Assembly (NCBI GenBank): GCA_003510435.1
Contig: DOMK01000013.1
Span: forward strand, 12,135-76,134
Length of the DNA: 64,000 nt
Source: Candidatus Magasanikiibacteriota bacterium
GTDB lineage: Bacteria > Patescibacteriota > Patescibacteriia > Magasanikbacterales > UBA922
Direction of reading: 5' to 3'
The notes under the pieces were generated by a model. That model searched no databases and was not told where the DNA came from. It saw nothing but the letters and a program-made list of their open reading frames with translations. Below are positions 4,546-61,425 of this stretch, one piece after another. A program made the position numbers and the translations under genes. Numbering within the stretch: position 1 is the first letter of the stretch; every line of letters starts with the position of its first letter.

Positions 4546-6395
4546 AAACTCCTCCGCCCAATTCAGACCAAAAAAGACAAATTATGGGAGCAATCCTTAG
4601 TCAGATTGTGGCCAAACAAATACTCCCGGCTTTATTAAAAGAAGAATTTGCTAAACATCTAATAAACCCAGCAAATTTTCTACCAAATTCAATAAATGAA
4701 ACTCTGGCCGTAGATCCAGCTCAATATATCAGCCCTGTCCTTTCTAATATAGGCATGCAAAACCCAAACATAAATCCTAAAGACATTGTTGGTAATTTTG
4801 GATCAAATAATTCTAGTTTACAACCATCAACCACAGCTGATTCAACTATTCCAAACCAAGGTGGTAATACTGGAACTTCAACTCCAGATACCACACCACA
4901 GGCAGATGCTGACCAAAATGGATCTCCTGCTAATAAAAATGGTCAATCAAAAAATGATTCAGACCAACCACAGGCAGATGCAGATGCAGATAAAGACAAA
5001 GAAAATCCTGATGACGATGATAAAAAAAATGAAGCCAAAAATCCAGAAGCAACGACTGATTTAAATAATCTTGATACGCCAGCTGATAAAGCTGTTAATA
5101 CAGATCAACCGACTGGTTCTGGTCAAAATCAAAATGTACCTGGATCAACCACCCAGCCTGGACAACAAGTTGGTCCTGGTGGTGTGGTAACCAATCCAAC
5201 TCAAGCAGGAGCACCTGGACAAAATACTCCTGGGAGTAATACACCAAATTCACCAACCACACCAGGAGCTAATGCTCAACCTGGTATGAATCCAAATGTT
5301 AGTAATCCAGATACAAAAGATGATAATGCAGATGCAGGCAAAGATGAAAATATTGATGAGGACGATAAAAAACCAGATGAAGACAAACTAGATGGTGAGG
5401 GTGATGATAAAAAAGAACCTGATGATAAAGATAAAGACGGTGACAAAAAAAATGATGAGAATGATAAAAATAGTGGTGACAAAACAAAACCAGATGAAAT
5501 ACCCTCAGGTTATTACGACCCTTATGCCAATTCAAAAGATGGTACGCATGCGGGATATTTTAATCCTGATGCGTCAAAAGAACAAACACCAGTCATAGAT
5601 GAAACAGGAAGAGACAGAGGAGCTACCATAACCCCAGAAAAAAAACCAGGGGATGGTTATTACGACCCTTATGCCAATTCAAAAGATGGTACGCATGCGG
5701 GATATTTTAATCCTGATGCGTCAAAAGAGGACGAAGATAGGGATGAAAGCAGTGACTCTCCATTTGGTGTTGAAAACCAAGACTTTGGCGGTATGAATAT
5801 GCCAAATCAACAAGAAGACCAGGAATCAGATGACGATACTCCACAAGATGGTAAAAGTGAACAACAGCCAGATAAAAAATCAGATTCTGATAATGACGAA
5901 CAAAAAGAAAAAAAACAAAAAATGGAAAACGAAAAAGGAAGCATGACTCAATTTATAAATCAAAATATAATAAACAGAACAAAGATAAACGGCCTAGAAC
6001 AAGAGATAAAAAATTTAGAAAACCAAGCTAATGATCTAAATAAAAAAAATGATGATTTAGATAAAAAAATTAAAGAATTGGAACCAGAATCAATTAAAAA
6101 ATTAAGGGGCATACAAACATTTATGGGAGGTTGTAGTTGTTGTTCTTGTATTTTTTTACCCATATCTCTTATTTCCTCAATATCAACAGCCTTAATTGAA
6201 TTATTTATCCAAATTAAAAAAAAGAAAGAACATGAAAATAAAGCTGAGATTGAAAAACTTGAAGAAGAAAAAAAAGCAAATACTAAAAATCTTAAACAAA
6301 TTAATAAACAAATTAATAAAATAGCTAGGGATATATACAATTTGCGAAACACAGGAATGATGAAAGGAATGGCCAATAATATGTTCAGACACTAG
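4542..6395 (+). CDS. hypothetical acidic low-complexity protein with an internal exact repeat and a C-terminal Cys-rich hydrophobic segment
   Basis: 617 aa, rich in P/T/G/D/K/N. The 25-aa unit GYYDPYANSKDGTHAGYFNPDASKE occurs twice. A C-terminal coiled coil flanks GGCSCCSCIFLPISLISSISTALIELF. Confidence 0.45.
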   Translation: MKTPPPNSDQKRQIMGAILSQIVAKQILPALLKEEFAKHLINPANFLPNSINETLAVDPAQYISPVLSNIGMQNPNINPKDIVGNFGSNNSSLQPSTTADSTIPNQGGNTGTSTPDTTPQADADQNGSPANKNGQSKNDSDQPQADADADKDKENPDDDDKKNEAKNPEATTDLNNLDTPADKAVNTDQPTGSGQNQNVPGSTTQPGQQVGPGGVVTNPTQAGAPGQNTPGSNTPNSPTTPGANAQPGMNPNVSNPDTKDDNADAGKDENIDEDDKKPDEDKLDGEGDDKKEPDDKDKDGDKKNDENDKNSGDKTKPDEIPSGYYDPYANSKDGTHAGYFNPDASKEQTPVIDETGRDRGATITPEKKPGDGYYDPYANSKDGTHAGYFNPDASKEDEDRDESSDSPFGVENQDFGGMNMPNQQEDQESDDDTPQDGKSEQQPDKKSDSDNDEQKEKKQKMENEKGSMTQFINQNIINRTKINGLEQEIKNLENQANDLNKKNDDLDKKIKELEPESIKKLRGIQTFMGGCSCCSCIFLPISLISSISTALIELFIQIKKKKEHENKAEIEKLEEEKKANTKNLKQINKQINKIARDIYNLRNTGMMKGMANNMFRH

Positions 6396-9535: not shown

Positions 9536-12136
9536 CTACTCCAAATGTACTCCATCTTCCCAATCCCTCACTTTACTTACAAGTGAAGGATTTTTTTTGA
9601 AGTCAATTCCTCGTGCCAAATCACGTGATAATTTTATCAAATCCATATCCTGCATGGTGGCGAGTTTAAAAGGTGGTAGACCACTCTGGCTTGTGCCATA
9701 AACTTCACCCGGGCCACGAGTTTGGAGATCATACTCAGCAATTTTAAAACCATCAGTATTTTGAGAAAAAAATTGCAATCGTGCCAAAGATTTTTCATTG
9801 TCAGTGTCAGTAAATAAAAAACAATATGATTGATGTAAAGCTCTACCCACCCGACCACGGAATTGATGGAGCTGGGCCAAGCCAAACCTGTCTGCGCCTT
9901 CTATCATCATCACGACAGCATTAGGAATATTTACTCCCACTTCTACGACTGATGTGGAAACTAGTATATCTATTTTTCCACTCGCAAAATCAGCCATAGT
10001 GTTTTCTTTTTCATTTGGCTTTAATTTGCCATGTAAATAACCAACACGTAAATCTTTAAATATCTCCTCAGATAATTTTTTATATTCACTCATTACACTT
10101 TTTTTATCTAAGGAGTAAGGAATAAGGAGTAAGGAATTATTATCAACAAAATCATCATCACTTTTTCCTTTTTCCTTTTTCCTTTTTCCTTCATCAATCA
10201 ACGGACATATCACAAACACCTGTCTCCCCTGTTTAACTTGTGAACGAATAAAATCATAGGCCTTGTTTCTATTTTCACTATCTACCACTCTAGTATCAAT
10301 TGCTTTTCTACCCACTGGCATTTCATTAATAATAGATAAATCCAAATCACCATACAAAGTAAGAGCAAAGGATCTGGGAATCGGGGTCGCAGTCATAGAC
10401 AACAAGTGAGGCCTCATTGCTGACTGACGCAGACTAGACGCAGACTCATTATTACCACGGGCAATATCATAAACAATTCTTTGAATATCCACGCTCTCGT
10501 GAGAAAAATTTATTAACAAAGCCAACTTATACAGTGATCCTTTTAAATATGTCCAAACCTGTCTATTTTCTCTACTACCAACAAACGGAAGGGCTTTTAA
10601 TTCAATGATAATTTTATCTTCAACCACAAAATCTGGACGATAAATTCCTATTTTTTTATTTTCATATTTTATATCTAATACTTTTTCTTTTTCAAATTTT
10701 ATTCCTTCTTTTTTAAATTCCTCTTCCAATGCATTTTGATAAATTACTTCTTTATGTCCTAAACCTAAATTCTTTTTAACATTAAAAATACATCCTCTTA
10801 TTTTGTAAGTCAAATCTTTATATAAAAATCCACTTTTACTTTCCTTCTCCTGTTGTTCTTCCTCTTCTGCGTCGTCTGCGTAAGTCTGCGTAAGTCTGCG
10901 TCGTTGTTCTACTCCGAATCGATGTTGTTCATCTATAATTACTAAACCTAAATTTTTAAACTGTACTTTTTCTGATAATAGAGCGTGGGTTCCAATAATC
11001 AAGTTTATTTGCCCAGTTTTAATTTGTTTAAGTAAATCTTTTTTAATCAAAATACTAGAAGATCGGTGATCACTGATCACTGATTGAGAACGTGTCAACA
11101 GCGCTATTTTAACTTTATCTTCCAACAGCTTTGTCAGCGAATCAAAATGTTGCACGGCCAATATCTCGGTCGGCGCCATTATCACTGCTTGATAATTATT
11201 CAAAACTGTATTATAAAGCGCCATCGCTGCCACGACAGTTTTTCCACTTCCCACATCACCTTCTAACAATCGATTCATAGGTTCATTTTTTTCCAAATCA
11301 CGCAAAATATCCCAAGCCGACACTTTTTGGGCTTTGGTAAGCTGAAAAGGTAAAGAACTAACAAACTCTTTTATTTTTTCTTGCTGAAATTTTATTTCCC
11401 AAGCTTTTGATCGTTTCAAAGATTGACGAATCATTTCCGCGCGTAATTGTAAAATAAATAGTTCTCCAAATTTCAAACGCTTTTTTGCTTGATTTAAGTC
11501 TATTTCATCTATTGGAAAATGGATACCACGCACCGCTTCGGCCAGATAAATCAAATCTGCTTTTTCTAAAATTTCATCTGGTATCCATTCTTTTAGTAAA
11601 TCATGAGTCAAATAAATTATTTGACTAACTAAAAACCTTAATTGTTTATTAGTAACTCCAGTCGTGAGATGATAAATTGGGACAATCCTGGCAGTATGGG
11701 TAGTGTTTTTTTCTCCCAAAGCTTTTTGTTTGGTTTCTTTTTCATAAGACGGCGATGCCATTTGTTTGCCTAGTTTTCCAATTGATAATTTGCCTGATAG
11801 ATAAACTGTATCACCAGGTTTAAAATTCCGAGTAATAAAAGGCTGGCCAAACCAAACAATTTTTAATTTTCCAGTTTCATCATAAACAATCGCCTCTGTC
11901 ATAATTGTTCGTCTTTTAAAAATCCGCCGATTGGAAATAATCTCTATTTTCGCTTTAATTGTCACTTCTTCCCCTACTTCCAAATCAGCAATATTCTTGG
12001 TACTACTATAATCTTGATAGCGAAAAGGTAAATAAAACAACAAATCCTGAATAGTATTTATACCAAGATTTTTTAAATGCCTTTCCATCTTTTTGGCAAT
12101 ATGGTTGATTTGTCCAATAAGTGTGTCTAATTGCAT
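9536..12136 (-). CDS. recG: ATP-dependent DNA helicase RecG carrying an in-frame PD-(D/E)XK (GxxExxY-type) domain insertion
   Basis: 866 aa. Walker A GSGKT, DEQH box, MTATPIPR motif III and an N-terminal wedge region. About 165 extra aa lie between DEQH and motif III. Confidence 0.85.
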   Translation of the reverse strand: MQLDTLIGQINHIAKKMERHLKNLGINTIQDLLFYLPFRYQDYSSTKNIADLEVGEEVTIKAKIEIISNRRIFKRRTIMTEAIVYDETGKLKIVWFGQPFITRNFKPGDTVYLSGKLSIGKLGKQMASPSYEKETKQKALGEKNTTHTARIVPIYHLTTGVTNKQLRFLVSQIIYLTHDLLKEWIPDEILEKADLIYLAEAVRGIHFPIDEIDLNQAKKRLKFGELFILQLRAEMIRQSLKRSKAWEIKFQQEKIKEFVSSLPFQLTKAQKVSAWDILRDLEKNEPMNRLLEGDVGSGKTVVAAMALYNTVLNNYQAVIMAPTEILAVQHFDSLTKLLEDKVKIALLTRSQSVISDHRSSSILIKKDLLKQIKTGQINLIIGTHALLSEKVQFKNLGLVIIDEQHRFGVEQRRRLTQTYADDAEEEEQQEKESKSGFLYKDLTYKIRGCIFNVKKNLGLGHKEVIYQNALEEEFKKEGIKFEKEKVLDIKYENKKIGIYRPDFVVEDKIIIELKALPFVGSRENRQVWTYLKGSLYKLALLINFSHESVDIQRIVYDIARGNNESASSLRQSAMRPHLLSMTATPIPRSFALTLYGDLDLSIINEMPVGRKAIDTRVVDSENRNKAYDFIRSQVKQGRQVFVICPLIDEGKRKKEKGKSDDDFVDNNSLLLIPYSLDKKSVMSEYKKLSEEIFKDLRVGYLHGKLKPNEKENTMADFASGKIDILVSTSVVEVGVNIPNAVVMMIEGADRFGLAQLHQFRGRVGRALHQSYCFLFTDTDNEKSLARLQFFSQNTDGFKIAEYDLQTRGPGEVYGTSQSGLPPFKLATMQDMDLIKLSRDLARGIDFKKNPSLVSKVRDWEDGVHLE

Positions 12137-16245: not shown

Positions 16246-16647
16246 ATGAATAATACTGGAGAAAAATTAATTTATCCGGATTTATCTTATAAAATAAATG
16301 GAATCCTCTTTGCCACCCATAATGAATTAGGCCCCTATGCCAGAGAAAAACAAATTGGTGATGTAATAGAAAAATTATTAAAAGAACAAGAAATACCCTA
16401 CCTCAGAGAATGTCAAATTGGCAATAGCGGAAATGTATTGGACTTTATTATAGATAATAAAATTATTCTTGAACTAAAATCAAAACGTTTTATAATAAGA
16501 GCAGATTATGAACAAACACAAAGGTATCTGCAAGCCACCCAGCTTAAACTTGCGATCTTAGTCAATTTTAGGACACAATATCTTAAACCAATCAGGATAG
16601 TAAAAATAGATACTCAATTTAAAGAAAAATTCATAAAAAAATATTAG
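16246..16647 (+). CDS. PD-(D/E)XK nuclease-like protein of the GxxExxY type; paralogue of the recG insert
   Basis: 133 aa with a D..ELK core (DFIIDNKIILELK). It aligns along its length with the domain inserted in RecG (for example YKINGILF~YKIRGCIF and LAILVNF~LALLINF). It is bracketed by inverted repeats. Confidence 0.55.
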   Translation: MNNTGEKLIYPDLSYKINGILFATHNELGPYAREKQIGDVIEKLLKEQEIPYLRECQIGNSGNVLDFIIDNKIILELKSKRFIIRADYEQTQRYLQATQLKLAILVNFRTQYLKPIRIVKIDTQFKEKFIKKY

Positions 16648-18464: not shown

Positions 18465-18471
18465 CACTTGT

Positions 18472-18536
18472 CATTCCGAGCGAAACCGATTCGCATCGGC
18501 TGACGAGGTCGAAGATACCCGTAAGGGTGAATCCCT
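18472..18536. repeat. GC-rich short structured element (cattccgag ... acgaggtcgaagata ... gtgaatcc) with an internal hairpin ccgattcgcatcgg
   Basis: Sits just after the dprA stop. Shares blocks with the element after the secY start (about 50598-50641). GC-rich against an AT-rich background. Confidence 0.55.
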
Positions 18537-18639
18537 TTCTTAAATTTACAATTCTAATTACTAATTTAAAAATATAAATCAATTCTATGATTTAATTATA
18601 ATTATTTAATCTTCTAATCATTAAATCCTAAATATTTTT

Positions 18640-23049: not shown

Positions 23050-23107
23050 ACACGGAAATCACGGAAAATAAGGAGCATACGGAAAAAAATAAAAGAATAT
23101 TTGAGAG

Positions 23108-23130
23108 CAGACAAACATGTCTGTTCTTTT
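23108..23130 (+). terminator. hairpin cagaca-aaca-tgtctg plus T-rich tail, after topA
   Basis: 6-bp stem followed by ttctttt. It is nested inside a longer inverted repeat (cacggaaat ... atttccgtg) spanning 23051-23166. Confidence 0.4.
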
Positions 23131-23495
23131 ATTCCGTGCAATTCCTATCTTCCTTATTTCCGTGTATAAAAAACACCACTACAAGTGGCGTCCTTTAGTA
23201 GCGGCGAGGAGGATGCCTCAATGCCATTGGTGATGTTAAGGCTCTCTTACCGCTACGGTCATAACTATAACAATAAATTCTCAAAAAAGCAAGATTTGAC
23301 CAAAAACACCAGTAATTTTAAAAAAATACAAAAGAAAAACCCCCGTCATACGACTGGGGTTTATCTTAGGCTTTTAGGTTTCCTGACCTTAACATCACTG
23401 ACCACAATATACCATATTTTTACCAGTTTGTCAAGATCTTGCACCTCATCTTAAGTAAAAATTATGTATTTTTAGCCTAATTTTATATATAAAAC

Positions 23496-25019
23496 TTGCA
23501 AAATTCATTAAAATTTGATACAAATAAAGGTATGCCAAACAAAAAACAAACAATTGAATCTTTACTCGAAAAAGTAAAAACATACACAAAAAAAGCTGAT
23601 CTAGATATAATCCGCCTAGCTTATGATTTTGCTGATAATGCCCACAATGGTCAGACTAGAAAATCTGGCGAACCATACATTGTTCATCCTTTAGCTACGG
23701 CTCACTTTTTGGCGGACATGCGGATTGACCCCGTCATCTTAACTGCCGCCCTACTCCATGATGTCCCAGAAGATACTGATGTCACGTTGGATGAAATAGA
23801 AAAAAACTTTGGCTCAGAAATTGCGTCACTAGTTCAAGGAATTACCAAATTAGGAAAATTAAAATATCGCGGAGTGGAACGCTATATCGAAAACCTGCGT
23901 AAAATGTTTGTGGCTATGGCCGAAGATGTTCGCGTTATGATTATCAAATTTGCTGATCGGATCCACAATCTGACAACTTTGGGAGCACTACCACCCCAAA
24001 AACAATACCGCATTGCCTTGGAAAGTTTAGAAATTTATGCGCCAATTGCTAATCGTTTGGGTATAGGAGAAATCAAGGGTATTTTAGAAGATCTGTCTTT
24101 TGAATATGTCTACCCAAAAGAATATCAGAGAGTAAAACAAATTAGAGATGAAAAACTCAAAGGCAAGGATGAATTTTTAAGACAAATTCAAGAAGATATA
24201 AAAAATGAATTGTTAAATACTGGTATAAAGACAGTTTCGATTGACGGCAGAAATAAAAGATTATATAGTTTATACCAAAAACTCCAACGTAAAGATCATG
24301 ATATTACTCAAGTTTATGACTTGGTGGCTATTAGAATTATTGTTCCAACCATTGCCGATTGTTATGCTTCCTTAGGTATATTACACAAACATTGGCGACC
24401 ACTAAAAGGCAGAATAAAAGATTATATTTCCCAACCAAAACCAAATGGTTACCAATCACTCCACACCACTGTCTTTTCTGATAATGGAGAAATTATTGAA
24501 TTTCAAATTAGAACTCCAGAGATGCATGATGATGCTGAATATGGTGTTGCTGCTCATTGGCACTACGACGAACATTGTTCAAAACGTCCGGCCAGAGAAA
24601 TCACTTGGATAAAAGAACTAGCTGAAATTCAAAAGGATATTTTAAATAAATTATCAGATTTAGAAGAAATAAAAATAGATTTTTTACAAAATAGAATTTT
24701 CGTTTTCACCCCCAAAGGTGACGTGATTGATTTACCTGAAGGTGCCACTCCAGTTGATTTTGCTTATCATATTCACACCGACATTGGTGATAAATGCAAT
24801 GGCGCCAGAATAAATGAACAAATGGCTAGTCTAGATACTGAATTAAAAAATGGTGACGTAATAGAAATTGTGATAGATAAAAATCGCAAAGGCCCTAGCC
24901 AAGATTGGTTAAATTTTATAAAAACTCATACTGCCAAAACTCATGTGACCAATTATCTAAAAGACAAACAAAAAGGCAAAATTGCTGACTGGTTTAAATA
25001 TGTTCTGCCAAAAAAATAG
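23496..25019 (+). CDS. RelA/SpoT-homologue (p)ppGpp synthetase/hydrolase, short form
   Basis: 507 aa. HD domain (HPLATAHFLA, HDVPED), a synthetase domain (YQSLHTTV) and a TGS domain. No ACT domain. Confidence 0.85.
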   Translation: MQNSLKFDTNKGMPNKKQTIESLLEKVKTYTKKADLDIIRLAYDFADNAHNGQTRKSGEPYIVHPLATAHFLADMRIDPVILTAALLHDVPEDTDVTLDEIEKNFGSEIASLVQGITKLGKLKYRGVERYIENLRKMFVAMAEDVRVMIIKFADRIHNLTTLGALPPQKQYRIALESLEIYAPIANRLGIGEIKGILEDLSFEYVYPKEYQRVKQIRDEKLKGKDEFLRQIQEDIKNELLNTGIKTVSIDGRNKRLYSLYQKLQRKDHDITQVYDLVAIRIIVPTIADCYASLGILHKHWRPLKGRIKDYISQPKPNGYQSLHTTVFSDNGEIIEFQIRTPEMHDDAEYGVAAHWHYDEHCSKRPAREITWIKELAEIQKDILNKLSDLEEIKIDFLQNRIFVFTPKGDVIDLPEGATPVDFAYHIHTDIGDKCNGARINEQMASLDTELKNGDVIEIVIDKNRKGPSQDWLNFIKTHTAKTHVTNYLKDKQKGKIADWFKYVLPKK

Positions 25020-25127
25020 CATTGATTTCACTGATTAATAAATGATTACACAGAAAAACTCCTCAACAAATGTTGAGGAGTTTTTTAATCTGCGAAATCA
25101 TTTTTCAAAATCAGTGAAATCAATGTT
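25020..25127. repeat. TIR-bounded spacer element (gcattgatttcactgatt ... aatcagtgaaatcaatg), family copy A
   Basis: The termini are inverted repeats of each other. The same termini recur at 36381-36470, 41489-41532, 48480-48552, 52760-52844, 54564-54661, 55518-55626 and 58459-58565. Confidence 0.65.
25054..25086. terminator. bidirectional intrinsic terminator between convergent genes
   Basis: aaaaa-ctcctcaac-aaat-gttgaggag-tttttt: a 9-bp stem with A- and T-runs on either side. It lies at the centre of the 25020-25127 repeat element. Confidence 0.65.
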
Positions 25128-25991: not shown

Positions 25992-26198
25992 ATTTTTTAC
26001 TAATCCCGAACCCGCCGTAGTCCGTCAGCTGACGGACGAAGGTGGGGAGGGATCCCTTTTCTATGAATCAAAGGCTGGATTACACCCAAACCTTCGTACC
26101 AGTCGAAAGCGAGATCTCTCCACTCGGAGTTAAATTTATTAATTAATTATTCTATGAAAGTTTTATTATTATTTGGCGTCATGATGACACGGAAAAGG

Positions 26199-27027: not shown

Positions 27028-27170
27028 GTATCCACAAAAGATATGCCCAGATGCCTGCCTGCCGACGAGGCAGGGCGGAACTGGTACCATGAACCACAAG
27101 GATTCATGACCATACACCCCACGTGGTGCATGGGACGCACAGTATTATTTACAAGAACACAACCAAATAT

Positions 27171-30837: not shown

Positions 30838-30847
30838 ATTGTTAATT

Positions 30848-30894
30848 CATTCCGACCCGCCGATGAGGCGAGGGAGGAATCTTTCCCACCTCGG
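30848..30894. repeat. GC-rich element cattccgacccgccgatgaggcgagggaggaatc in the scpA-scpB spacer
   Basis: About 40 bp, near-identical in reverse complement to 50705-50745 (cattccgaacccgccgatgaggtgaggtgaggaatc). Confidence 0.6.
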
Positions 30895-30912
30895 ATTATT
30901 TAATAAAAAAAA

Positions 30913-34508: not shown

Positions 34509-34586
34509 AAATTTAGGAATTAGGAGTTAGGGCTAGATGCGAGAAAAAATTCCCGCATCTCATTCCTTATTCCCTACTCCCAATAT
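34509..34586. repeat. structured spacer element (taggaattaggagttaggg ... gatgcgagaaaaaattcccgcatc ... ccttattccctactccc)
   Basis: A related copy lies at 46051-46135 (ttaggatttaggaattag ... gatgcgggaat ... ccctaactcctaattcc). Confidence 0.55.
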
Positions 34587-36380: not shown

Positions 36381-36561
36381 ATAGCATTGATTTAAACAGA
36401 TTAAAACTGATTCAGACAAAAAATTTACCACAAAATCTCTGTGTAATTCTGTCTAAAACAATGCTTATATCTTAGCAAAAACTAACCGATTTGGCAAGCA
36501 AAAAACACACCAATTTTGATGTGCTTTTGAGTCGTCCCGAAGGCGCAGACGACCTTCGGGT

Positions 36562-39914: not shown

Positions 39915-40048
39915 ATATTCAATAAAACATCAAAACACAAAAACAATAAAACATCTACAAAAATATTACCATTTTTTGCTTAATTTAGCAAGTTACAAAT
40001 CCTCTCCAACATGGAGAGGATTTGTTTTGCTTGTTACAAGATAACGAT

Positions 40049-41380: not shown

Positions 41381-41415
41381 AATTTTATAATTATGAATTA
41401 ATGAATTAAATTTTG

Positions 41416-41488
41416 CTCCGAGGGCTGGACTCGAACCAGCGATATCCGCGTTAACAGCGCGGTGTTGTACCAACTCAACTACCTCGGA
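41416..41488 (-). tRNA. tRNA-Asn (anticodon GTT)
   Basis: 73 nt. Acceptor TCCGAGG/CCTCGGA, anticodon loop CTGTTAA, T-loop TTCGAGT, discriminator G. CCA is not encoded. Confidence 0.8.
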
Positions 41489-41799
41489 ATAAATTACATC
41501 AATTTTAATCTGTTTAAATCTGTCTAAATCAATGCCAAAATTAAAGACTCTCCCGTCGGGGAGAGTCGTTTGTAGTGTTAGTCTGTTTTAGGACACTAAA
41601 AAACTCGCCCGCCGGGTTGGGGTGTATTATTATTAGTATTACTTGTCTGCCGTAGAGGCAGATTTGTTCGAAACATTTGTCTCATATGTTTAAATAATAC
41701 AACTACTTTTGAATAACGTCAAATAACTTATCCACACCGCACTAGAACCTCCTTACAGTCGGTTCGGTGCAGTGCAAGCACCTTTAAACAAAAGCACCA

Positions 41800-44384: not shown

Positions 44385-45620
44385 TTAGGCATTAGGTATT
44401 AGACAGCGCATAATGTCATCAATCGTCACTATTCCTAACAAATGATTATCATTATCTATAACAGCTACTGACAACAAATTATATTTTGTCATAATAGTAG
44501 CGATTTTGGTTAGATTAGCGTCTACTTTAACACCAGGAATACCAGCAATTCTTTTCATCACTTCCCCGACTTTTCTTTTTTCGTCACTAATCATCAATCG
44601 TCTCATAGAGACTACACCCAGATAATGATTTTCTGTATCAACTACATACACAAAAAATATTGAACGATGCAAATGAGAATATTTTTTAATTTTTTCAATT
44701 GTCTCACCAACAGTGTCCTCTGAACTAGCAGTCAAATATTCAGTTGTCATAAGACCACCAGCTTCATCTTCATCATATTCCAAAATTTTTCTCAAACTCT
44801 TAGCATCTTTATAAGATGGTAGCCTCTCAATAAGTTGCACTGACTCACGAGCGGGAAGAAGTTGGATCAAATCAACCAATTCATCGGCTGACATCTTACC
44901 AACAATATCCATCGCTCTTTCTGGACCCAAATGTTGAACCAAAATTTTCTGAATTTCCGGCTGAACTTCTTCCAAGACTTTGGCCGCCGTCCTCTCGTCA
45001 AGTGAATCTAACAACGTACTACTTTGATTTAAATTCAATTTTTCCACAATATTGGCAATATCAGCTGGATGCAATTTTACCAAATCATCTTTATTTATAT
45101 CAAATTGTAATTTATCTCCGACAATATGAATATCTTTCCATTCCAAAAGATGAGGTTTAAAAAATCTAAATAATGATCCATGAAAACCAAGACGACGCAA
45201 TAAACCACTAGTAGATACATCAATTGCCAACAAACTCATTATTCCTTGTACTATGCTAAACTGTAAATCATTTACCCTAACTACTTTCACACCAGACAAA
45301 TCTACAATCTGTTTGTCTACTATATGACGATTTAAAAACAACAAATGATCTTCTTTTGGTATTGATAACATTTTTTCATTTAAGACGCAACGTAAAAAAA
45401 TACCACCAGAACTCCAATTGGAAACATTTTTTATTTCTACATAATATTCTTTGTTATTTTTGCCTTTCACTAAAATTCCCACCACCGGCGGGTACTGTTT
45501 CTTATCATCACTGTCAACGGCAATGTCTACTAAATGACCAACAATTTCATCATTTTTATCACGAATTTTTTTGTTAAATAAATTGCTAAAGTAAAACATA
45601 CAGATAAGCAGATTATGCAA
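44385..45620 (-). CDS. MgtE N-terminal domain plus CBS-pair protein (no membrane domain)
   Basis: 411 aa. MgtE_N helical region (DIANIVEKL...LLP), a tandem CBS pair at the C-terminus and a PRC-barrel-like N-terminus. The transporter TM module is absent. Confidence 0.6.
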   Translation of the reverse strand: MHNLLICMFYFSNLFNKKIRDKNDEIVGHLVDIAVDSDDKKQYPPVVGILVKGKNNKEYYVEIKNVSNWSSGGIFLRCVLNEKMLSIPKEDHLLFLNRHIVDKQIVDLSGVKVVRVNDLQFSIVQGIMSLLAIDVSTSGLLRRLGFHGSLFRFFKPHLLEWKDIHIVGDKLQFDINKDDLVKLHPADIANIVEKLNLNQSSTLLDSLDERTAAKVLEEVQPEIQKILVQHLGPERAMDIVGKMSADELVDLIQLLPARESVQLIERLPSYKDAKSLRKILEYDEDEAGGLMTTEYLTASSEDTVGETIEKIKKYSHLHRSIFFVYVVDTENHYLGVVSMRRLMISDEKRKVGEVMKRIAGIPGVKVDANLTKIATIMTKYNLLSVAVIDNDNHLLGIVTIDDIMRCLIPNA

Positions 45621-45669
45621 ATTAAGCAGAATAAGCAGAAATGTTATTTGCTTACTCTGCTTATCCTGC

Positions 45670-46050
45670 TTATTGCTTTCTTAGCTTCACTTGTTCTAAG
45701 TAACCTTCAAGTATTAACATCGCTGCCTTCTCATCCAAACTAGCCCGACCACCCATCTCCTCTGCCTCAGCTGTGGTTAGTCTTTCATCGGCAAAATCAA
45801 TTTCTAGATTCGTAGACTTTTTTATTTCTTCGGCAAACTTCCTAATCCGCCTTGTGTTATCATTTTCACTAGAATCTTCCAAACCAAAAGGTAAACCAAA
45901 AATAACTTTATTTATTTTCTCTTTTTTTATCAATTCTATTAATTCATCTTTATTACCTACTACACCAAAAGGTAAAACTACATCCAAACCAGTCTGTGCC
46001 CAAGCCAAACCAATTCTTTTACGGCCATAGTCCACTCCGAGTATATTCAT
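45670..46050 (-). CDS. ruvX: Holliday-junction resolvase-like / pre-16S rRNA nuclease YqgF (RuvX)
   Basis: 126 aa starting MNILGVDYGRKRIGLAWAQ. Confidence 0.85.
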   Translation of the reverse strand: MNILGVDYGRKRIGLAWAQTGLDVVLPFGVVGNKDELIELIKKEKINKVIFGLPFGLEDSSENDNTRRIRKFAEEIKKSTNLEIDFADERLTTAEAEEMGGRASLDEKAAMLILEGYLEQVKLRKQ

Positions 46051-46135
46051 AATTAATTAGGATTTAGGAATTAGTAATAAGATGCGGGAATTTCTCTCGC
46101 CTCAAGCCCTAACTCCTAATTCCTTTTTTATATAA
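46051..46135. repeat. second copy of the taggaatt / gatgcgggaat / cctaattcc spacer element
   Basis: See 34509-34586. Confidence 0.55.
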
Positions 46136-48479: not shown

Positions 48480-48552
48480 AGCATTGATTAAAACTGATTT
48501 AGACTGATTTAAACGATTAAATTTCTGTTTTAATCTGTCTAAATCAATGCTT
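48480..48552. repeat. TIR-bounded spacer element, copy D (gcattgattaaaactgatttagactgattt ... ctgtctaaatcaatgc)
   Basis: Near-identical to 52760-52844 over about 70 bp. Confidence 0.7.
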
Positions 48553-48834: not shown

Positions 48835-48892
48835 ATTTTAATAATTAATTTTGCTTAAATTAGCAAATTTATTCTATCATAAAACAAAGGCA

Positions 48893-48921
48893 TTGACAAA
48901 TATATATATGTGTGATAAAAT
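48893..48921 (+). promoter_or_regulatory. promoter TTGACA-N17-TAAAAT (mini-cassette 2)
   Basis: ttgaca aatatatatatgtgtga taaaat. A 5'UTR hairpin tgtgggt...acccaca follows, then RBS GGAGGG at 48976-48981 and the ATG at 48988. Confidence 0.55.
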
Positions 48922-48987
48922 AATTTGTCTTGTGGGTTACTTACACCCACAGATAGCATACAACCGATCTTACCTGGAGGGAAGAAA

Positions 48988-49176
48988 ATGCAAATTCGTT
49001 TTCTAGACATCGTTGCCTTGGTCGTTCAGGTACTAGTGGTCCTAGGTGGTTTGTTACTCACAATACTCAGTGAGACCGTGTGGGATCTGTCGGTTGGAAT
49101 CGCGACAACCTACAGCGGAGTACGGGCGATAAAAGGCATCTTCAAAGAAATGAGGACGCCTCCACCAGCCGATTAA
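48988..49176 (+). CDS. GC-rich 62-aa hydrophobic peptide (mini-cassette 2)
   Basis: MQIRFLDIVALVVQVLVVLGGLLLTILSETVWDLSVGIATTYSGVRAIKGIFKEMRTPPPAD. One long hydrophobic span. GC-rich codons. Confidence 0.5.
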   Translation: MQIRFLDIVALVVQVLVVLGGLLLTILSETVWDLSVGIATTYSGVRAIKGIFKEMRTPPPAD

Positions 49177-49256
49177 GTGAGGGGGCAGTCAGTTCCAAGC
49201 CCCCCAGAGCAATAAAACATTTATTTTTCTGGGGGACTGATTGCCTTAATAATAAA

Positions 49257-49286
49257 ACCAGCTGTTTTTAAACGGCTGGTTTTTTT
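49257..49286 (+). terminator. intrinsic terminator accagc-N12-gctggt plus a T7 run
   Basis: Downstream of the cassette-2 ORF. Preceded by G/C-tract hairpins (gggggc...gccccc). Confidence 0.6.
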
Positions 49287-49319
49287 GTTTTGTGTTATGT
49301 GTTTTGTGACTCGTGTCGA

Positions 49320-50591: not shown

Positions 50592-50595
50592 ATCA

Positions 50596-50745
50596 TCGTT
50601 TCATTCCGAGTTTACGAGGTCGAAGATACTCTTGAGTGAATCTTTTTTACCCCGCGACTCTTTAAAACCATTGGCTAATAATTTGAAAAAGTTTATTTTA
50701 GAAAAGATTCCTCACCTCACCTCATCGGCGGGTTCGGAATGAACT
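50596..50745. repeat. two GC-rich short elements in the rplO-secY spacer
   Basis: About 50598-50641: cattccgagtttacgaggtcgaagatactcttgagtgaatc, related to 18472-18536. About 50705-50745: gattcctcacctcacctcatcggcgggttcggaatgaac, the reverse complement of 30848-30894. Coordinates are within about 3 nt. Confidence 0.6.
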
Positions 50746-52759: not shown

Positions 52760-52844
52760 AGCATTGATTAAAACTGATTTAGACTGATTTCAGATAATTA
52801 AACATCTGTTTTAATCTGTCTAAATCAATGTTTATTTAGTTTAT
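52760..52844. repeat. TIR-bounded spacer element, copy E, between rpsH and rplF
   Basis: gcattgattaaaactgatttagactgatttcagataattaaacatctgttttaatctgtctaaatcaatg. Confidence 0.7.
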
Positions 52845-53237: not shown

Positions 53238-53392
53238 AGTTTTTGAGTAATTTTATTTATTGTACATTTATTTACTTACTAAAGTTTTACCACTTCTATA
53301 TTATAATTATTTTTCACCTTACCACCTCACCACTTAACCACATATACAAATTTGTGATTGAGTGATTAAGTGATAAAGTGGTTAAGTGATTT

Positions 53393-54162: not shown

Positions 54163-54242
54163 ATTTTATTCACTTTTTAGCACTTTAGCACTTTAGCACT
54201 TAAAACATTTTTTTGCTTAGGTGCTTGAGTGTTCAAGTGTTT

Positions 54243-54563: not shown

Positions 54564-54661
54564 AACATTGATTTCACTGATTTATTATATTTGATTACAC
54601 TGATTTGGAGGATGTCTTTTATATCTGTGAAATCCATTTCCAAATCTGTGCAATCAATGTT
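54564..54661. repeat. TIR-bounded spacer element, copy F, between rplN and rplX
   Basis: acattgatttcactgattt ... tgtgcaatcaatgtttta. Confidence 0.65.
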
Positions 54662-55033
54662 TTATAAGACTTCAGGCGCTAATGAAATAATTTTTTGGAA
54701 ACCTTTGGTTCTAAGCTCTCTAGCGACTGGTCCAAAAATACGTGTTCCTTTTGGTTCTTTACTTTTTTTGTCAATAATTACAGCGGCGTTATTATCAAAA
54801 CGGATATATGTACCATCCTTACGACGCATTTCTTTTCTTTGACGAACAATCACAGCATGAACAACATCACCTTTCTTTATGGCGGCACGTGGAGCAGCTT
54901 CTTTGACAGCACAAGTAATTACATCACCAAGGAAGGAATAACGTTTTTTATACCCACCCAAGACACGAATACATTGTAATTTTTTTGCGCCAGAATTGTC
55001 TGCCACTTCTAACATTGATCTATGCTGGATCAT
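54662..55033 (-). CDS. rplN: 50S ribosomal protein L14
   Basis: 123 aa starting [18 protein letters not shown]. Confidence 0.9.
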
Positions 55034-55056
55034 ACTTTAATAATTTATATATATAT

Positions 55057-55323
55057 TTAATTGGCAATTTTTATTAAACGCCATTTTTTGGTCTTGCTAA
55101 AAGGACGACACTCTTCAAAAATTACTTTATCACCAACTTTAGCAGTATTATTTTCATCATGCACGGCATATTTCTTACTAGACATATACTGTTTTCTGTA
55201 TTTGGCATGCATTTTTTTAATTTTTACCAAAACATGAATTGTCTTATTTTCTACAGTACTCAAGACCTCGCCTTCAAAACGACGGTGAATTACAACTTTT
55301 GTTTTATTAGCTTCATTTGTCAT
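55057..55323 (-). CDS. rpsQ: 30S ribosomal protein S17
   Basis: 88 aa with an OB fold. Operon position. Confidence 0.9.
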   Translation of the reverse strand: MTNEANKTKVVIHRRFEGEVLSTVENKTIHVLVKIKKMHAKYRKQYMSSKKYAVHDENNTAKVGDKVIFEECRPFSKTKKWRLIKIAN

Positions 55324-55325
55324 AT

Positions 55326-55517
55326 TTACTTCTTATTTTTAGCATTTAACAAAGTCAAAATTTGAGCAACTATTTTTTTATTATTACGAATTTCTCTTAC
55401 TTTTTTTAGCTGATTCTCACTAGCTTTAAAACGTAACTCACGAACTTCTTCTCTCTTTTCTGATAATAGATCTTGAAGTTCTTTTATACTTTTATTTTTT
55501 AAGTCCTTAAAATCCAT
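55326..55517 (-). CDS. rpmC: 50S ribosomal protein L29
   Basis: 63 aa, helical. Operon position. Confidence 0.85.
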   Translation of the reverse strand: MDFKDLKNKSIKELQDLLSEKREEVRELRFKASENQLKKVREIRNNKKIVAQILTLLNAKNKK

Positions 55518-55626
55518 ACAACATTGATTTAACTGATTTATATTGATTTCACAGATTACTTACGTATTTTTTGATTATCAATTCGTATTCAGTGTAATCT
55601 ATTTTCTTAATCTGCGCAATCAATGT
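55518..55626. repeat. TIR-bounded spacer element, copy G, between rplP and rpmC
   Basis: acattgatttaactgattt ... atctgcgcaatcaatgttt. Confidence 0.65.
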
Positions 55627-56040
55627 TTAGTCCTTTTTAATAAATTTAACTTTGGTTGGTAATTTATAACCACTCAAGAGTAAAGCTGTTCTAGCTTCGC
55701 TTTCCAAAATACCATCCATTTCCATCATTACTGTACCTGGTTTGATAGTACAAACATAATGATCCGGTGCACCTTTACCTCCACCCATTGGAACTTCGCT
55801 ACCTTTTTTTGTTACTGGTCTATCAGGAAAAATTCTAATCCAGATCTTACCACCACGACGAACATAACGAGTCAGTACACGACGAGCTGCTTCAATTTGA
55901 CGAGAGGTCACCCAAGCATGATCAAGAGCAACAATACCAAAAGCGCCAAAAGCTAAAGTGTTTATACGGCTGGCCACTCCTCTATTCTTATGACGTGGCT
56001 TGTGCCATTTTCTATGTTTTACTTTCTTGGGTAACAGCAT
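55627..56040 (-). CDS. rplP: 50S ribosomal protein L16
   Basis: 137 aa starting [14 protein letters not shown]. Confidence 0.9.
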
Positions 56041-56077
56041 ACCTTTTATAAAATTTCTTATGTATAATTTTCAAAAT

Positions 56078-56773
56078 TTAATCCTTTTTTATTTCTTTTT
56101 TGGTATCAGTATCACTGGTTTCAGTAAACTTATCTTTTCTACCAAATATTTCACCATGACAAATCCAGACTTTTACACCAATTTTACCATAGATTGTATC
56201 AGCTTCTACCAAGGCGTAATCAACATCACTTCTTAGGGTAATTAACGGCACTGTTCCAGCGGCTAATTTTTCGGTTCTAGCAATTTCTACCCCATTCAAT
56301 CTTCCAGCCATACAAATTTTTACTCCTTTGGCGCCAGCTTTCATTACTCTCTCAATCGTTTGCTTCATGATACGACGGAAAGGAATACGTTTCTCCACGT
56401 CAGCGGCACAAGTCTGGGCAACAATGGAAGCTGATAAAGCTGGAGATTTCACTTCTTTGATATTCAATTTAACTTTGAGTGACATTTGTAAAAATTTTCT
56501 TTCAATTTCTTTTCGTAAATCATCCAAAGACTTACCACCACGACCGATTATAAAACCTGGCTTACCAGCAAATACTGTAACGGTCATATTCTTTGGTCCA
56601 CGTTCTACACCAATTGAATCAATATGGGCATCTTTAAATTTTTTTGTCAAAAATTCACGAATACTAATATCCTGTTCTGCCATTTTTGGATAATTGTTTT
56701 TTCCAAACCACTTTGAATCCCAAGTATAAATAACTTGTGTTCTATGTGCTCTTGGATGTACTTTATGACCCAT
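56078..56773 (-). CDS. rpsC: 30S ribosomal protein S3
   Basis: 231 aa with a KH domain, plus a C-terminal extension. Confidence 0.9.
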   Translation of the reverse strand: MGHKVHPRAHRTQVIYTWDSKWFGKNNYPKMAEQDISIREFLTKKFKDAHIDSIGVERGPKNMTVTVFAGKPGFIIGRGGKSLDDLRKEIERKFLQMSLKVKLNIKEVKSPALSASIVAQTCAADVEKRIPFRRIMKQTIERVMKAGAKGVKICMAGRLNGVEIARTEKLAAGTVPLITLRSDVDYALVEADTIYGKIGVKVWICHGEIFGRKDKFTETSDTDTKKEIKKD

Positions 56774-56799
56774 ATAAATTAATTTCCAATTAACTAAAA

Positions 56800-57252
56800 T
56801 TACTTATTTTCTGTTTTTTTATCAACTTTTTCTTCATTCTTTACAGCCTTGTCTTCTTTTTTATCTTCTTTAGCAACTTTTTTATTTTCTTTCTTTACTT
56901 TTTTACCCTCATTAGCTTCCCCTTCCAAAACAACTGTCACATGAGAACCACGCTTTTTTAGTGGTGAAGCTGAACCCATAGCTCTTGGCATCCAACGATG
57001 TAAGGCTGGAGCTTCGTCTACAAAAGCAGTCTTAACAACCAAAGTTTCTTCTTTTAAATTATTATTTTCTCTAGCATTGGCCACAGCAGACAACAAAAGC
57101 TTCAAAACTGGACGAGAAGCATGCTTTTGATTATTTTCCAATTGGGAAACAGCTTCATCCACTTTTAAACCACGAATAAGACCAATAAGCAAACGAACTT
57201 TTCGTGGGCTCATTCTCAAATGTCTTAATTTTGCTGTGACTTGCTCTTTCAT
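56800..57252 (-). CDS. rplV: 50S ribosomal protein L22 (with a K/E-rich C-terminal tail)
   Basis: 150 aa. L22 core plus about 40 lysine/glutamate-rich residues. Confidence 0.9.
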   Translation of the reverse strand: MKEQVTAKLRHLRMSPRKVRLLIGLIRGLKVDEAVSQLENNQKHASRPVLKLLLSAVANARENNNLKEETLVVKTAFVDEAPALHRWMPRAMGSASPLKKRGSHVTVVLEGEANEGKKVKKENKKVAKEDKKEDKAVKNEEKVDKKTENK

Positions 57253-57258
57253 ATATTA

Positions 57259-57555
57259 TTATTCAGATTTCTTTTGTTCTTTGGCCATTTTTCCACCATG
57301 ACCAAGGAATTTTCTAGTTGGAGAAAATTCTCCCAACTTATGTCCAACCATATTCTCTTCTACAAAGACATTGATAAAATCTTTTCCATTGTGGACTAAA
57401 AAAGTCAAACCAATAAATTCTGGTGCAATTGTACAGGCTCGTGCCCAAGTCTTGATTGGTGTATTGTCTTTTGTTTCTCTGGCCTTGACTGCTTTTTTCA
57501 TCAATTTTTCATCAATATAAGGCCCTTTTTTTAAACTTCTTGACATAGTCCACAA
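57259..57555 (-). CDS. rpsS: 30S ribosomal protein S19
   Basis: Starts [12 protein letters not shown] (a 3-codon upstream extension appears in the table). Confidence 0.9.
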
Positions 57556-57615
57556 AAATTATTTTCTTTTTTAGTTATATAATCGTTTTTTTAATTTACT
57601 ATTTTATTATAAAGT

Positions 57616-58458
57616 TTATTTGCTTTTCTTTCGTCTCTGTACAATAAACTTATTACTCCATTTACTTCTCTTTCTTGTCTTAACACCCAAAGCTTTCTTG
57701 CCCCATGGAGTTTTTGGACCACCACGTAAACCGATCGGACTGTGGCCCTCTCCACCACCATGTGGGTGATCAATTGGGTTCATATTCTTACCTTTTACGA
57801 TTGGTCTCCAACCAAGCATTCTTCTGCGACCGGCCTTACCCCATCTTACCAAAGATTTGTCTTGATTGCTAATTGTTCCAACAGTCGCAGCACACTCTTT
57901 CTTTATCATTCGCACTTCTCCAGAAGGCAATTTCAATTGAGCATATTTACCTTCCATAACTTGTAATTGAGCACAATTACCAGCTCCTCTTACCAATTGT
58001 CCACCTTTGCCAGGAGTCATTTCTACATTGTAAACAAATAAACCAATTGGGATAAATTCTAATGGCATTCTGTTGCCAACTTTGGCTTCAATTTTATTCT
58101 TACTAGACATTACTTTATCACCAACTGTAATTCCTTTTGGAGCAATAAAGTAAGCTTTTTCACCACCAGTATATTCTACAAGCATAATCCGAGCGCCACG
58201 ATTTGGATCATATTCAATCGTCTTTACTTCGGCTTCAATATCAAATTTAGTACATTTAAAATCAACAACTCTATAAAGTCTCTTTACCCCACCACCACGA
58301 TGGCGGACGGTAATCTTACCAGTATTATTTCTTCCGGAATGTTTTTTAAGAGTCGTCACCAAAGATTTTTCTGGTACAATATTTGTTATATCAGAAAAAT
58401 CCTGCACGCTTGATTTGCGTCTACCTGGTGTAGTTGGTTTGTAGACTTTAATTCCCAT
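57616..58458 (-). CDS. rplB: 50S ribosomal protein L2
   Basis: 280 aa starting [14 protein letters not shown]. Confidence 0.9.
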
Positions 58459-58565
58459 ATTTTATAACACAGATTTCACAGATTATTTAGAATGATTCCA
58501 CAGATTTGATAGATTTGGCTCGTTTACATTCAGTGAAATCTATTTTAATCCGTGTAATCAATGTT
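58459..58565. repeat. spacer element, copy H, between rplW and rplB (cacagattt words plus the right terminus gtaatcaatgtttt)
   Basis: Shares the right TIR and the word structure with copies A-G. Confidence 0.55.
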
Positions 58566-60437: not shown

Positions 60438-60990
60438 ATCTATTTTGGTAACAAAAAACTAGAAGTGATATCTCAAAACAAGATTTAAAATATCGCTTCT
60501 AGCCTTTATAAAAAAATGATTATATTGGCTTGTAAATTATAATTTTTAATATTCACCTCACTGTACACCATTTGCCTTCTTGCAGATGTTTTCTTTCTTG
60601 AAAGTTCACGGAAAATTATTTTACAATTATAATCCGTAACCCTTAGTAAAATCCGTAATCATAGATCTTATCTGCTCGAATTTTTGGTGTTGTTCCTAAT
60701 ACTTTAGGAAGTGGCCATATTTTACCTCAAAACAAAAACAATGTCAAGGGGTTTTATACAACCGTTATCCACATGTAAATATGATTTACAAGATTCAAAC
60801 CCCTAACCAAATTTTATGACAAAACCATTGTCAAATTGTCTCATTGACACATTGTTATTGCTACACATATATAACAACTTTTCAAAAAAACAATGGCAAC
60901 AATTTAACAATGTGACAATAATATTTAAAAGGCATTAACCAAATATCTACACAAAATATTTTTTTATCTCAAAAAACCTACTTTTTTACC

Positions 60991-61425
60991 TTAATTCATT
61001 TTAATTTCTATATCCACACCAGCTGGCAAACTCAAATTCATAAGAGCATCAATCGCTTTTGGGGTTGGATTTAAGATATCAATCAAACGTTTGTGAGTAC
61101 GCATTTCAAACTGTTCCGAAGATGTCTTGTGTACAAAAGTAGAACGATTGACAGAAAACTTATTCTTCTCAGTTGGCAATGGTACTGGACCTACGACTTT
61201 GGCGCCATTTCTCTCAGCCGTGTCAATAATTGTCTTAGCAGCTTGATCAATAATCTTACTATCATAAGCTCTAATTTTGATTCTAACTTTTGGGCCAGCA
61301 GTTTGAGCAATATCAGCTGTTTTATCGGCTACTTTGTCTGTTGTCTTGTCAGTTGTTTTGTTTATTGTTGTCATAAAATATTTAAAAGAACAAAGGGAGA
61401 GGACACTTGTCTGTCCCCTCCCCAT
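60991..61425 (-). CDS. rpsJ: 30S ribosomal protein S10 (with an N-terminal TDKTTDK repeat extension)
   Basis: The S10 core ([19 protein letters not shown]...THKRLIDI) is preceded by about 25 extra residues. The true start is probably MTTINK. Confidence 0.85.

Follow-up and report, generated by a model that had tools for sequence, protein, structure and literature searches.

A dyad-symmetric interspersed repeat in ribosomal-protein gene junctions of Candidatus Magasanikbacteria

Background

REPINs are bacterial repeats of about 89 bp in which two inverted conserved ends enclose an unconserved hairpin-forming spacer, with A/T runs at the flanks, and they are served in trans by a single-copy RAYT protein (PMC3337134). 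They are the closest described kind to the element studied here, a small palindromic interspersed repeat whose copies fill spacers between genes of the S10/spc/adk cluster in a 64,000-nucleotide stretch of DNA (hereafter the window; contig DOMK01000013.1, positions 12,135 to 76,134, of assembly GCA_003510435.1) from a Candidatus Magasanikiibacteriota bacterium. As in the REPIN/REP-BIME and RAYT systems of Pseudomonas and Enterobacteria (PMC3116915, PMC3337134), the elements are about 90 bp, extragenic, apparently transcribed and capable of forming a long imperfect hairpin; conserved inverted ends surround an unconserved spacer, the flanks have A and T runs, the consensus is retained between species despite turnover of positions, and some copies are combined with terminators. 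They differ in that the copies hug start codons and not 3' ends, in that the host belongs to the Candidate Phyla Radiation (CPR), and in that no RAYT or other HUH gene was present in the approximately 84 kb of genome read here. [quoted passage not shown] Since its arms are not self-palindromic, no RAYT was seen and no target-site duplication accompanies it, we place the element among the small palindromic interspersed repeats, outside both REPINs and MITEs.

ERIC elements of Enterobacteria and Yersinia are co-transcribed palindromic insertions of 100-150 bp with a TA target duplication and inverted repeats of at least 26 bp; the present element is unrelated to them in sequence and shows no target duplication. 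In phage T4 genes 38 and 25 a hairpin loops out between the ribosome-binding signal and the AUG. This is a mechanistic analogue only, in which a stable hairpin keeps two translation signals adjacent and extra nucleotides are tolerated, whereas the T4 hairpins are single gene-specific structures of a Shine-Dalgarno-using system and not a dispersed repeat family. The MIRUs of Mycobacterium tuberculosis are said to have been described by Supply and colleagues in 1997 as lying exactly between stop and start codons in operons, in one orientation; reportedly they are compatible with translational coupling and consist of direct tandem repeats with small open reading frames (ORFs) that overlap the stop and start codons on either side. 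Stop-to-start placement and a bias to one orientation recur here, whereas the present element is a palindrome and not a tandem array. Correia repeat-enclosed elements (CREE) of Neisseria (PMC2649163) are likewise palindromic insertions of 100-150 bp beside or between genes and are co-transcribed; their ends can create promoters, their RNA hairpin is an RNase III substrate, and the expression and stability of neighbouring cistrons are affected. CREE differ from the present element in duplicating a TA target, in simple inverted repeats of at least 26 bp, in an IHF site and in their unrelated sequences; neither a target duplication nor an IHF-type core nor a promoter could be demonstrated here.

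Few bacterial loci are as tightly packed and as conserved as ribosomal-protein operons, and with about 1 Mb the genomes of CPR bacteria are small. We report that palindromic word-repeat elements of at least five families fill at least 11 junctions of the str/S10/spc cluster in this lineage, and that the family studied here appears constrained, is flush with start codons and favours translation genes. The family is previously undescribed, and our literature search brought up nothing published about intergenic repeats of Magasanikbacteria or CPR. The explanation that we favour, with moderate confidence, is that the spacers represent a non-coding interspersed repeat of dyad symmetry, specific to the Candidatus Magasanikbacteria lineage, which was first trans-mobilised as hairpin DNA and then transcribed as a looped-out intercistronic hairpin under constraint. 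If a function or a mobilising enzyme came to light, this would be the CPR's first described repeat/enzyme system of its type, with a bearing on cistron initiation and coupling in bacteria that do not use Shine-Dalgarno pairing; if no function were found, the family would still document that hairpin inserts are tolerated inside essential operons of streamlined genomes, and its copies would still be useful as strain or species typing markers for uncultivated organisms.

Methods

The window has a G+C content of 34.6% and carries the S10/spc/adk genes on its minus strand. The source population is clonal and from groundwater, and was assembled from several samples of PRJNA292723 and others; the identity of all contigs encoding the same proteins to the window is 99.96-100%, too high to show strain-level insertion polymorphism. 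The nearest species representatives are Candidatus Magasanikbacteria (CPR/Patescibacteria), with L24 identities of 63-77%. The genome sequence read consisted of the 64-kb window and 20 kb walked beyond it.

Copies were detected by nhmmer with a profile built from the window copies, flanking genes were identified by Pfam, and folds were scored as z against shuffled sequences. For the comparison of junctions, ribosomal-protein genes were placed in 14 related operons (L007-L019 among them). Metagenome contigs were scanned with a two-ended pattern, which gave 106 loci, approximately 40 of which are true members by profile score. The alignment of arms comprised 70 arms from 35 distinct copies; the terminus and one GATT were fixed by the search pattern and the other blocks were free. 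The identity of orthologous elements was compared with the identity of fourfold-degenerate sites in the flanking genes.

Results

Copies in the window and just beyond

The profile search assigned seven full copies and one half copy in the window to one repeat family, all of them intergenic and five of them in the S10/spc/adk cluster (nhmmer E-values of 3e-17 to 3e-10, and 0.04 for the half copy). The terminal word CATTGATT occurs 20 times in the window as compared to 6.6 ± 2.6 in shuffled sequences, an excess of about threefold that none of 100 shuffles reached. Across the approximately 84 kb the count rises to nine full copies and one half copy, the tenth lying just outside the window at the rpsG|fusA junction (L201 1774-1860). 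The elements measure 70-125 bp and fall into a long and a short type. An earlier note on this DNA, made from the sequence without database searches, had grouped six loci as copies of one repeat, and the profile confirms all six; the note's assignments of rsh, parB, aspS, tRNA-Asn and the ribosomal-protein genes are correct, and its list lacked the copies at rpsH|rplF and upstream of adk.

Three long-type copies separate ribosomal-protein genes on the minus strand. The copy at rplN|rplX (54564-54661; E 3e-17) begins right after the rplN TAA and stops right before the rplX ATG, and has a predicted RNA fold of -26.1 kcal/mol (z -4.95); the same junction is 1-29 nt in L007-L013, L016, L018 and L019. 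At rplP|rpmC (55518-55626, profile match 55520-55627; E 2.5e-15) the copy folds weakly and lies 0 nt from the upstream TAA and 2 nt from the downstream ATG, with related copies at this junction in L007 and L130 and only 1-4 nt in L008, L009, L011, L014, L015 and L018. The rplW|rplB spacer (58459-58565, element proper 58466-58565; E 6e-17; z -4.4) has as its ATG-proximal terminus the variant ...AATCTGTGTT, followed by 7 nt and the ATG; L007 keeps a half-copy remnant there and nine relatives have 3-23 nt. Of the termini cattgatt and aatcaatg, which had been taken as common to the three spacers, this last copy has only aatcaatg (58556-58563), and its other end reads aacacagatt from 58466.

The short-type copies are also on the minus strand. 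One fills rpsH|rplF (52760-52832; E 3e-11; z -4.95; Pfam S8 and L6 at the flanks) and abuts the rplF ATG, where L007 retains only the ATG-proximal arm; another lies between a 93-aa ORF (orf93) and adk (48480-48551; E 3e-10; z -5.8; Pfam ADK), and the two are 91% identical by blastn. The third forms the leader of aspS, as had been proposed, with limits that had to be redrawn: it spans 36383-36466 (E 6e-12), is preceded by TTGCCA-17 nt-TGcTAAGAT and 5 nt, and ends 2 nt before the ATG at 36380. Copies occupy the equivalent position before aspS-type genes in L153, L161 and L148. The half copy (41489-41535, minus strand), a single arm with the TAGAC type of word, has its inner end upstream of tRNA-Asn (41415-41488, minus strand), about 19 nt from the gene's 5' end; it thus precedes the tRNA gene and does not follow it, as had been assumed.

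At rsh|parB (25018-25127, long type, assigned to neither strand) the genes are convergent (Pfam RelA_SpoT and ParB) and the ends of the copy touch both stop codons. Its 17-nt arms are 100% complementary, it folds at -52 and -55 kcal/mol (z -12), and its centre (25054-25086) is a G+C-rich hairpin with T-runs, i.e. the bidirectional terminator that had been recognised there before.

Insertion into junctions that are short in related species

In L008, L009, L011, L018 and L019 the four operon junctions are 1-25 nt long (e.g. TAA-T-ATG), in keeping with the expectation that such spacers normally have a few nucleotides. Family copies occur at rplF|rplR in L010 and L012, at rpsH|rplF in L014 and L015, and in L015 also at rplX|rplE with termini identical to those in the window; L007 has a full copy at rplP|rpmC together with decayed half copies at rplW|rplB and rpsH|rplF. 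A different palindrome family, with words such as GTTCATAGCCAATAG, occupies nine junctions in L017. As to whether relatives carry equally long, unrelated spacers, which the earlier note had raised, some are short and others are long, with related or unrelated palindromes at other junctions. Because relatives have short junctions, palindromes at other junctions and decayed remnants, the long spacers arose, on this comparative sequence evidence, by insertion into junctions that are 1-25 nt in related species, and in some lineages copies have decayed to half elements. A neighbour-joining tree built from 13 ribosomal proteins implies that copies were gained or lost several times, and among 80 ribosomal-protein loci from many phyla only five gave matches, namely the Magasanikbacteria-like L007, L010, L012, L014 and L015. 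The five species with empty junctions, the copies elsewhere, the remnants and the approximately 40 dispersed copies support the earlier suggestion of a MITE-like insert.

We considered the rplP|rpmC copies of the window and L130 as an orthologous pair for dating the insertion; their arm similarity of 78% is not above that of non-orthologous pairs (82% between the 55518-55626 copy and L112) and hence is not usable for this purpose. Half copies outside the window (L010 15101 and 16190; L013 15148; L148 2124-2186; L171 9280-9330; L189 1414-1463) stand in two fixed contexts, either stop codon, arm and terminator hairpin, or arm and then start codon. In L010 a 28-nt gene end, arm and terminator-like hairpin is present twice, approximately 1.1 kb apart.

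Constraint on orthologous copies

Orthologous copies are 89% identical between L010 and L012 (95/107, one gap; fourfold-degenerate sites 67%), 83% between L014 and L015 (fourfold 52%), 95% between L106 and L174 (79/83, ungapped; fourfold 55%) and 86% between L106 and L175 (fourfold 40%), while unrelated spacers give approximately 60% by the same alignment procedure. With element identities of 83-95% against 40-67% at fourfold sites, intact orthologous copies, as judged by sequence comparison, change far more slowly than fourfold-degenerate sites, and the earlier suggestion of a tolerated parasite therefore appears too weak. The same pattern is seen for another family's palindrome at rplN|rplX (80% vs fourfold 52%). 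Non-orthologous copies from different genomes reach 84% arm similarity, and copies within a genome are no closer to each other than copies from different genomes, which suggests that the family is held near its consensus and does not stem from recent bursts in particular genomes.

Position relative to genes

The approximately 40 further copies in metagenome contigs of 35-53% GC keep their termini to the base while their centres vary. In 23 of the 39 distinct full copies (27 of 39 if a conserved 32-aa gene is counted) one end lies 0-4 nt upstream of the ATG of an ORF with 60 aa or more; the opposite end is at a stop codon (0-4 nt), at a TGnTAnAAT-like box plus 5 nt (aspS, ftsK), or at what we take, by eye, to be a CIRCE-like operator (before the hrcA and clpB-like copies). 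The copies fill the whole untranslated gap and are oriented relative to the downstream gene. Downstream genes encode L2, L29, L24, L6, Adk, EF-G, AspRS and tRNA-Asn in this genome, and L11, S7, S11, L22, L29, NusA, AspRS, a ThrRS-type protein, a ClpB-like protein and FtsK among the metagenome copies; one further product is presumably HrcA, named by eye without a Pfam match. In L106, L107, L174 and L175 the region downstream of lepA carries the conserved gene for the 32-aa hydrophobic peptide (MYGSKKLKALWTV...), separated from lepA solely by one element copy.

A Shine-Dalgarno-like motif precedes only 5 of 69 genes, and in many genes a box resembling TATAAT or TGnTAnAAT stops 6-9 nt short of the ATG (for instance at 26978, 12136 and 13365, upstream of each); together these suggest that leaderless or very short-leader mRNAs are widespread. 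Other repeat families in the genome likewise reach start codons, and given this and the rarity of Shine-Dalgarno motifs, the abutment of start codons may partly reflect deletion bias.

Anatomy and folding

The element runs from A[A/G]CATTGATT to AATCAATG[C/T]T, and each arm reads, in order, CATTGATT, n, (A)[C/A/G]AC, n, GATT, an A+T spacer of 6-10 nt, GATT, n, CAC, n, GA. Behind its invariant terminus an arm thus holds two direct copies of GATT-n-CAC/AAC-n-GATT, 6-10 nt apart, without internal dyad. The blocks that were not imposed by the search pattern are 70-99% conserved in the 70 arms (GATT 94-99%, AC 96%), with free positions in between. Words come in a 9-nt (nCACn) and a 10-nt (nA[A/G]ACn) form, which can be mixed within one element, and GATT recurs at intervals of approximately 9-10 and 12-14 nt. 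The elements are asymmetric: by a hand tally, in 11 of the 13 informative loci the word farther from the downstream ATG is of the TAGAC type or the 9-nt form, and the word nearer to it is of the AAAAC type or the 10-nt form. The centre is unconserved: at least four copies, including rsh|parB, carry a terminator-like hairpin, which recurs in L087, L092 and L114, and other copies have different G+C-rich hairpins.

The proposal that each spacer folds as a long imperfect hairpin holds for most copies, whose folds beat shuffles (z -3.5 to -12), with rplP|rpmC as the exception. When folded in context, three of the five operon copies pair in a slipped register, the AUG-proximal word remaining single-stranded. 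Mismatches between arms are mostly A.A and U.U. The five operon copies have no terminators, and only the nested centre at rsh|parB qualifies as an intrinsic terminator. A consensus scan for internal promoters gave 55 sites as compared to 55.1 in shuffles, with no consistent place within copies, although a few 9-of-12 matches overlap individual copies. The elements had no Rfam match at the gathering threshold or at E≤1. A viral scan for phage carriage yielded chance matches only. No ORF reading through the element was noticed by eye, a systematic ORF scan not having been made, and the ATG in the CAATG terminus mostly does not share the reading frame of the gene downstream (offsets calculated by hand).

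Resemblances of the words to known DNA sites were set aside: oriC, DnaA-box, parS, CRP/FNR and IHF sites share no more than 4-6 bases with them or need another half-site spacing. The GC skew shows no switch within the window.

Discussion

According to the explanation that we favour, the element would have been spread in trans by an enzyme encoded elsewhere, whose substrate is probably single-stranded hairpin DNA, as it is for RAYT and IS200-type HUH transposases. IS200-type HUH transposition leaves no target-site duplication. Nor is one visible here, since the flanks of 77 ends contain no direct repeat at a fixed offset, and the TA found within 1-5 nt of most ends is due to the adjacent stop codons and to the T that usually precedes the start codon (TATG). 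Mobilisation as a single-strand hairpin would explain the missing target duplication, the orientation bias and the consensus that stays constant between species. After insertion the element would be transcribed as part of the operon mRNA and fold as an imperfect hairpin, the base of which would place the upstream stop codon (or 5' end) beside the next AUG; as Shine-Dalgarno sequences are hardly used, looping out would leave termination-reinitiation coupling intact. The hairpin could also serve as an intercistronic stabiliser or processing site.

Several results weigh against this explanation. No transposase or integrase Pfam match was obtained among the ORFs of the 64-kb window, the 20 kb beyond it yielded no such partner, and no pair of termini enclosed a larger segment in approximately 2.2 Mb of loci; the partner transposase that the earlier note had looked to did not appear in this sequence. 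The arms are tandem direct words and not short self-palindromes as in REPINs, they lack a GTAG-like 5' motif, and the equal similarity of copies within and between genomes gives no sign of a recent burst. With respect to RNA structure, the fold of the rplP|rpmC copy does not beat shuffles (z -1.8 by itself, -1.3 in context), variable positions do not covary between arms (70 arms, 35 copies), and in variable columns the arm-to-arm identity is 0.11-0.37 as compared to 0.33-0.48 expected, with complementarity below chance. Moreover, no excess of G.U pairs was found in the sense strand (36 sense vs 34 antisense), and the two strands are equal in folding energy. Taken together, the lack of covariation and of a G.U excess and the equal folding of the strands mean that there is no positive evidence of selection on RNA structure, and conserved blocks alternating with free positions would also fit recognition by a protein. 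The processing or attenuation sites that the earlier note had envisaged find no direct support, the operon copies having neither terminators nor Rfam matches and the arms neither covariation nor a sense-strand G.U excess. The evidence as to whether the element acts as DNA or RNA points both ways.

A different explanation, which we regard as unlikely yet the strongest of the alternatives, is that the element acts as double-stranded DNA, a dyad array of four words bound by a dedicated protein (such as a regulator, a domesticated transposase, or a factor of the nucleoid or gyrase type) that coordinates or insulates translation genes, in which case the hairpin potential would be a by-product of symmetry. 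The tetranucleotide blocks GATT and AC alternating with free, non-covarying positions, the equivalence of the two strands in G.U content and folding energy, the GATT periodicity, the constraint on whole copies and the predominance of translation and transcription genes downstream (L11, S7, S11, L22, L29, L2, L24, L6, EF-G, NusA, AspRS, the ThrRS-type gene, Adk and tRNA-Asn) are all in its favour. Against this, an orientation bias of 11 to 2 is unexpected for a symmetric DNA site, and copies also precede hrcA, a clpB-like gene, ftsK and the 32-aa peptide gene. Furthermore, equivalent junctions in this genome and its relatives hold at least five other word families built to the same architecture, and each family would need a protein of its own, and no candidate binding protein was identified.

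We consider it improbable that the copies are plain MITEs, selfish DNA of neutral or slightly harmful effect and of no use to the host, whose location at gene boundaries results from deletion bias in a streamlined genome. Presence or absence does vary between species, truncated remnants exist, no function could be shown, and many unrelated palindromic families reach start codons in the same genome, so that abutment is not special; the slow change of orthologous copies relative to fourfold sites, a consensus that is base-exact in contigs of 35-53% GC, and the enrichment of translation genes downstream are, however, difficult to reconcile with neutrality. A similarly low probability is given to the element being a mobile, host-constrained cis-regulatory module, in which a dedicated factor would recognise an oriented four-word cassette, as DNA or as a transcribed hairpin, that has spread to just 5' of ribosomal-protein, tRNA-synthetase, EF-G, NusA, adk and tRNA genes. 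If this were true, CPR bacteria lacking Shine-Dalgarno sequences would co-regulate their translation-apparatus mRNAs, or process them into near-leaderless units.

Dedicated cis-regulatory RNAs of ribosomal-protein genes (autoregulatory leaders, attenuators, or two-state switches formed by alternative word registers) are very improbable: copies do stand directly 5' of ribosomal-protein start codons and the slipped register frees the AUG-proximal word in three of five operon copies, while in the short-type copies 48480-48551 and 52760-52832 the complement of the outer 5' word is, by eye, innermost in the 3' arm, a non-mirror word order also seen by eye in L201 and L107, but the element precedes functionally unrelated genes too and lies between two stop codons, its operon copies are without terminators or U-tracts, covariation and Rfam matches (E≤1) are absent, and the junctions are empty in sister species with the same ribosomal proteins.

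Other features of the genome

Further palindromes consist of two to four tandem words of 8-10 nt, a loop and the inverted words, and they fill many gene junctions. Those at rplX|rplE (54163-54242) and rpsN|rpsH (approximately 53310-53392) have the same tandem-word architecture as the family above with different words; others lie in the window at 45603-45673, 46042-46134 together with 34509-34586, 23050-23184, approximately 1540-1624 and 39915-40048, and in L201 at 660-760, 1185-1295 and 3944-4000. Their words include CACTTAAG, CACTTAAC, GATAAGCAG, TTAGGA, CACGGAAAT, CAAGGCTTA and AAAGGCC. A second, G+C-rich class of repeats (18465-18560, 25992-26060, 27040-27075, 30838-30900 and 50592-50743) comprises …CATTCCGA… / …TCGGAATGA… and CCTGCCTGCCGGCAGGCAGG-like hairpins, and hairpins of the latter kind are also nested in the centres of CATTGATT copies, in L153, L177 and L015.

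The rpsJ-rplC spacer (60438-60990, minus strand) is 220-550 nt long in all 14 relatives and contains a conserved promoter-like CTTGACA-17 nt-TAAAAT (60747-60719), after which follow the blocks CAGATAAGATC, GAAAACATCTG, GAGGTG and AAGGCTAGAAG, with CTTCTAGTTTTTT just before rplC. RNAalifold predicted 25 pairs, eight with compensatory changes, including a terminator-like stem, and Rfam gave no match to this leader, which we consider a candidate for a new ribosomal-protein leader or attenuator. Between tuf and rpsJ lies a hairpin resembling an intrinsic terminator (61394-61423, minus strand), because of which the mechanical start of the rpsJ ORF at 61425 is over-extended; public gene calls give S10 a length of 127 aa.

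Three plus-strand features occupy 48835-49319 in the otherwise minus-strand stretch between secY and adk: a strong promoter-like site, TTGACA-17 nt-TAAAAT with a TG (48893-48921), a 62-aa ORF (48988-49176) that belongs to the few genes having a Shine-Dalgarno-like motif, and a terminator (49254-49283) in a strongly folding region. RecG (9536-12136) has an inserted PD-(D/E)XK_3 nuclease domain at aa 440-553, and a free-standing PDDEXK_3 ORF (16246-16647) lies 4 kb from recG; a gene of the 23S_rRNA_IVP family is found just outside the window (L198 15445-15879). Finally, a 617-aa ORF without a Pfam match (4542-6395) contains two identical 74-nt repeats, at 5508-5581 and 5655-5728.

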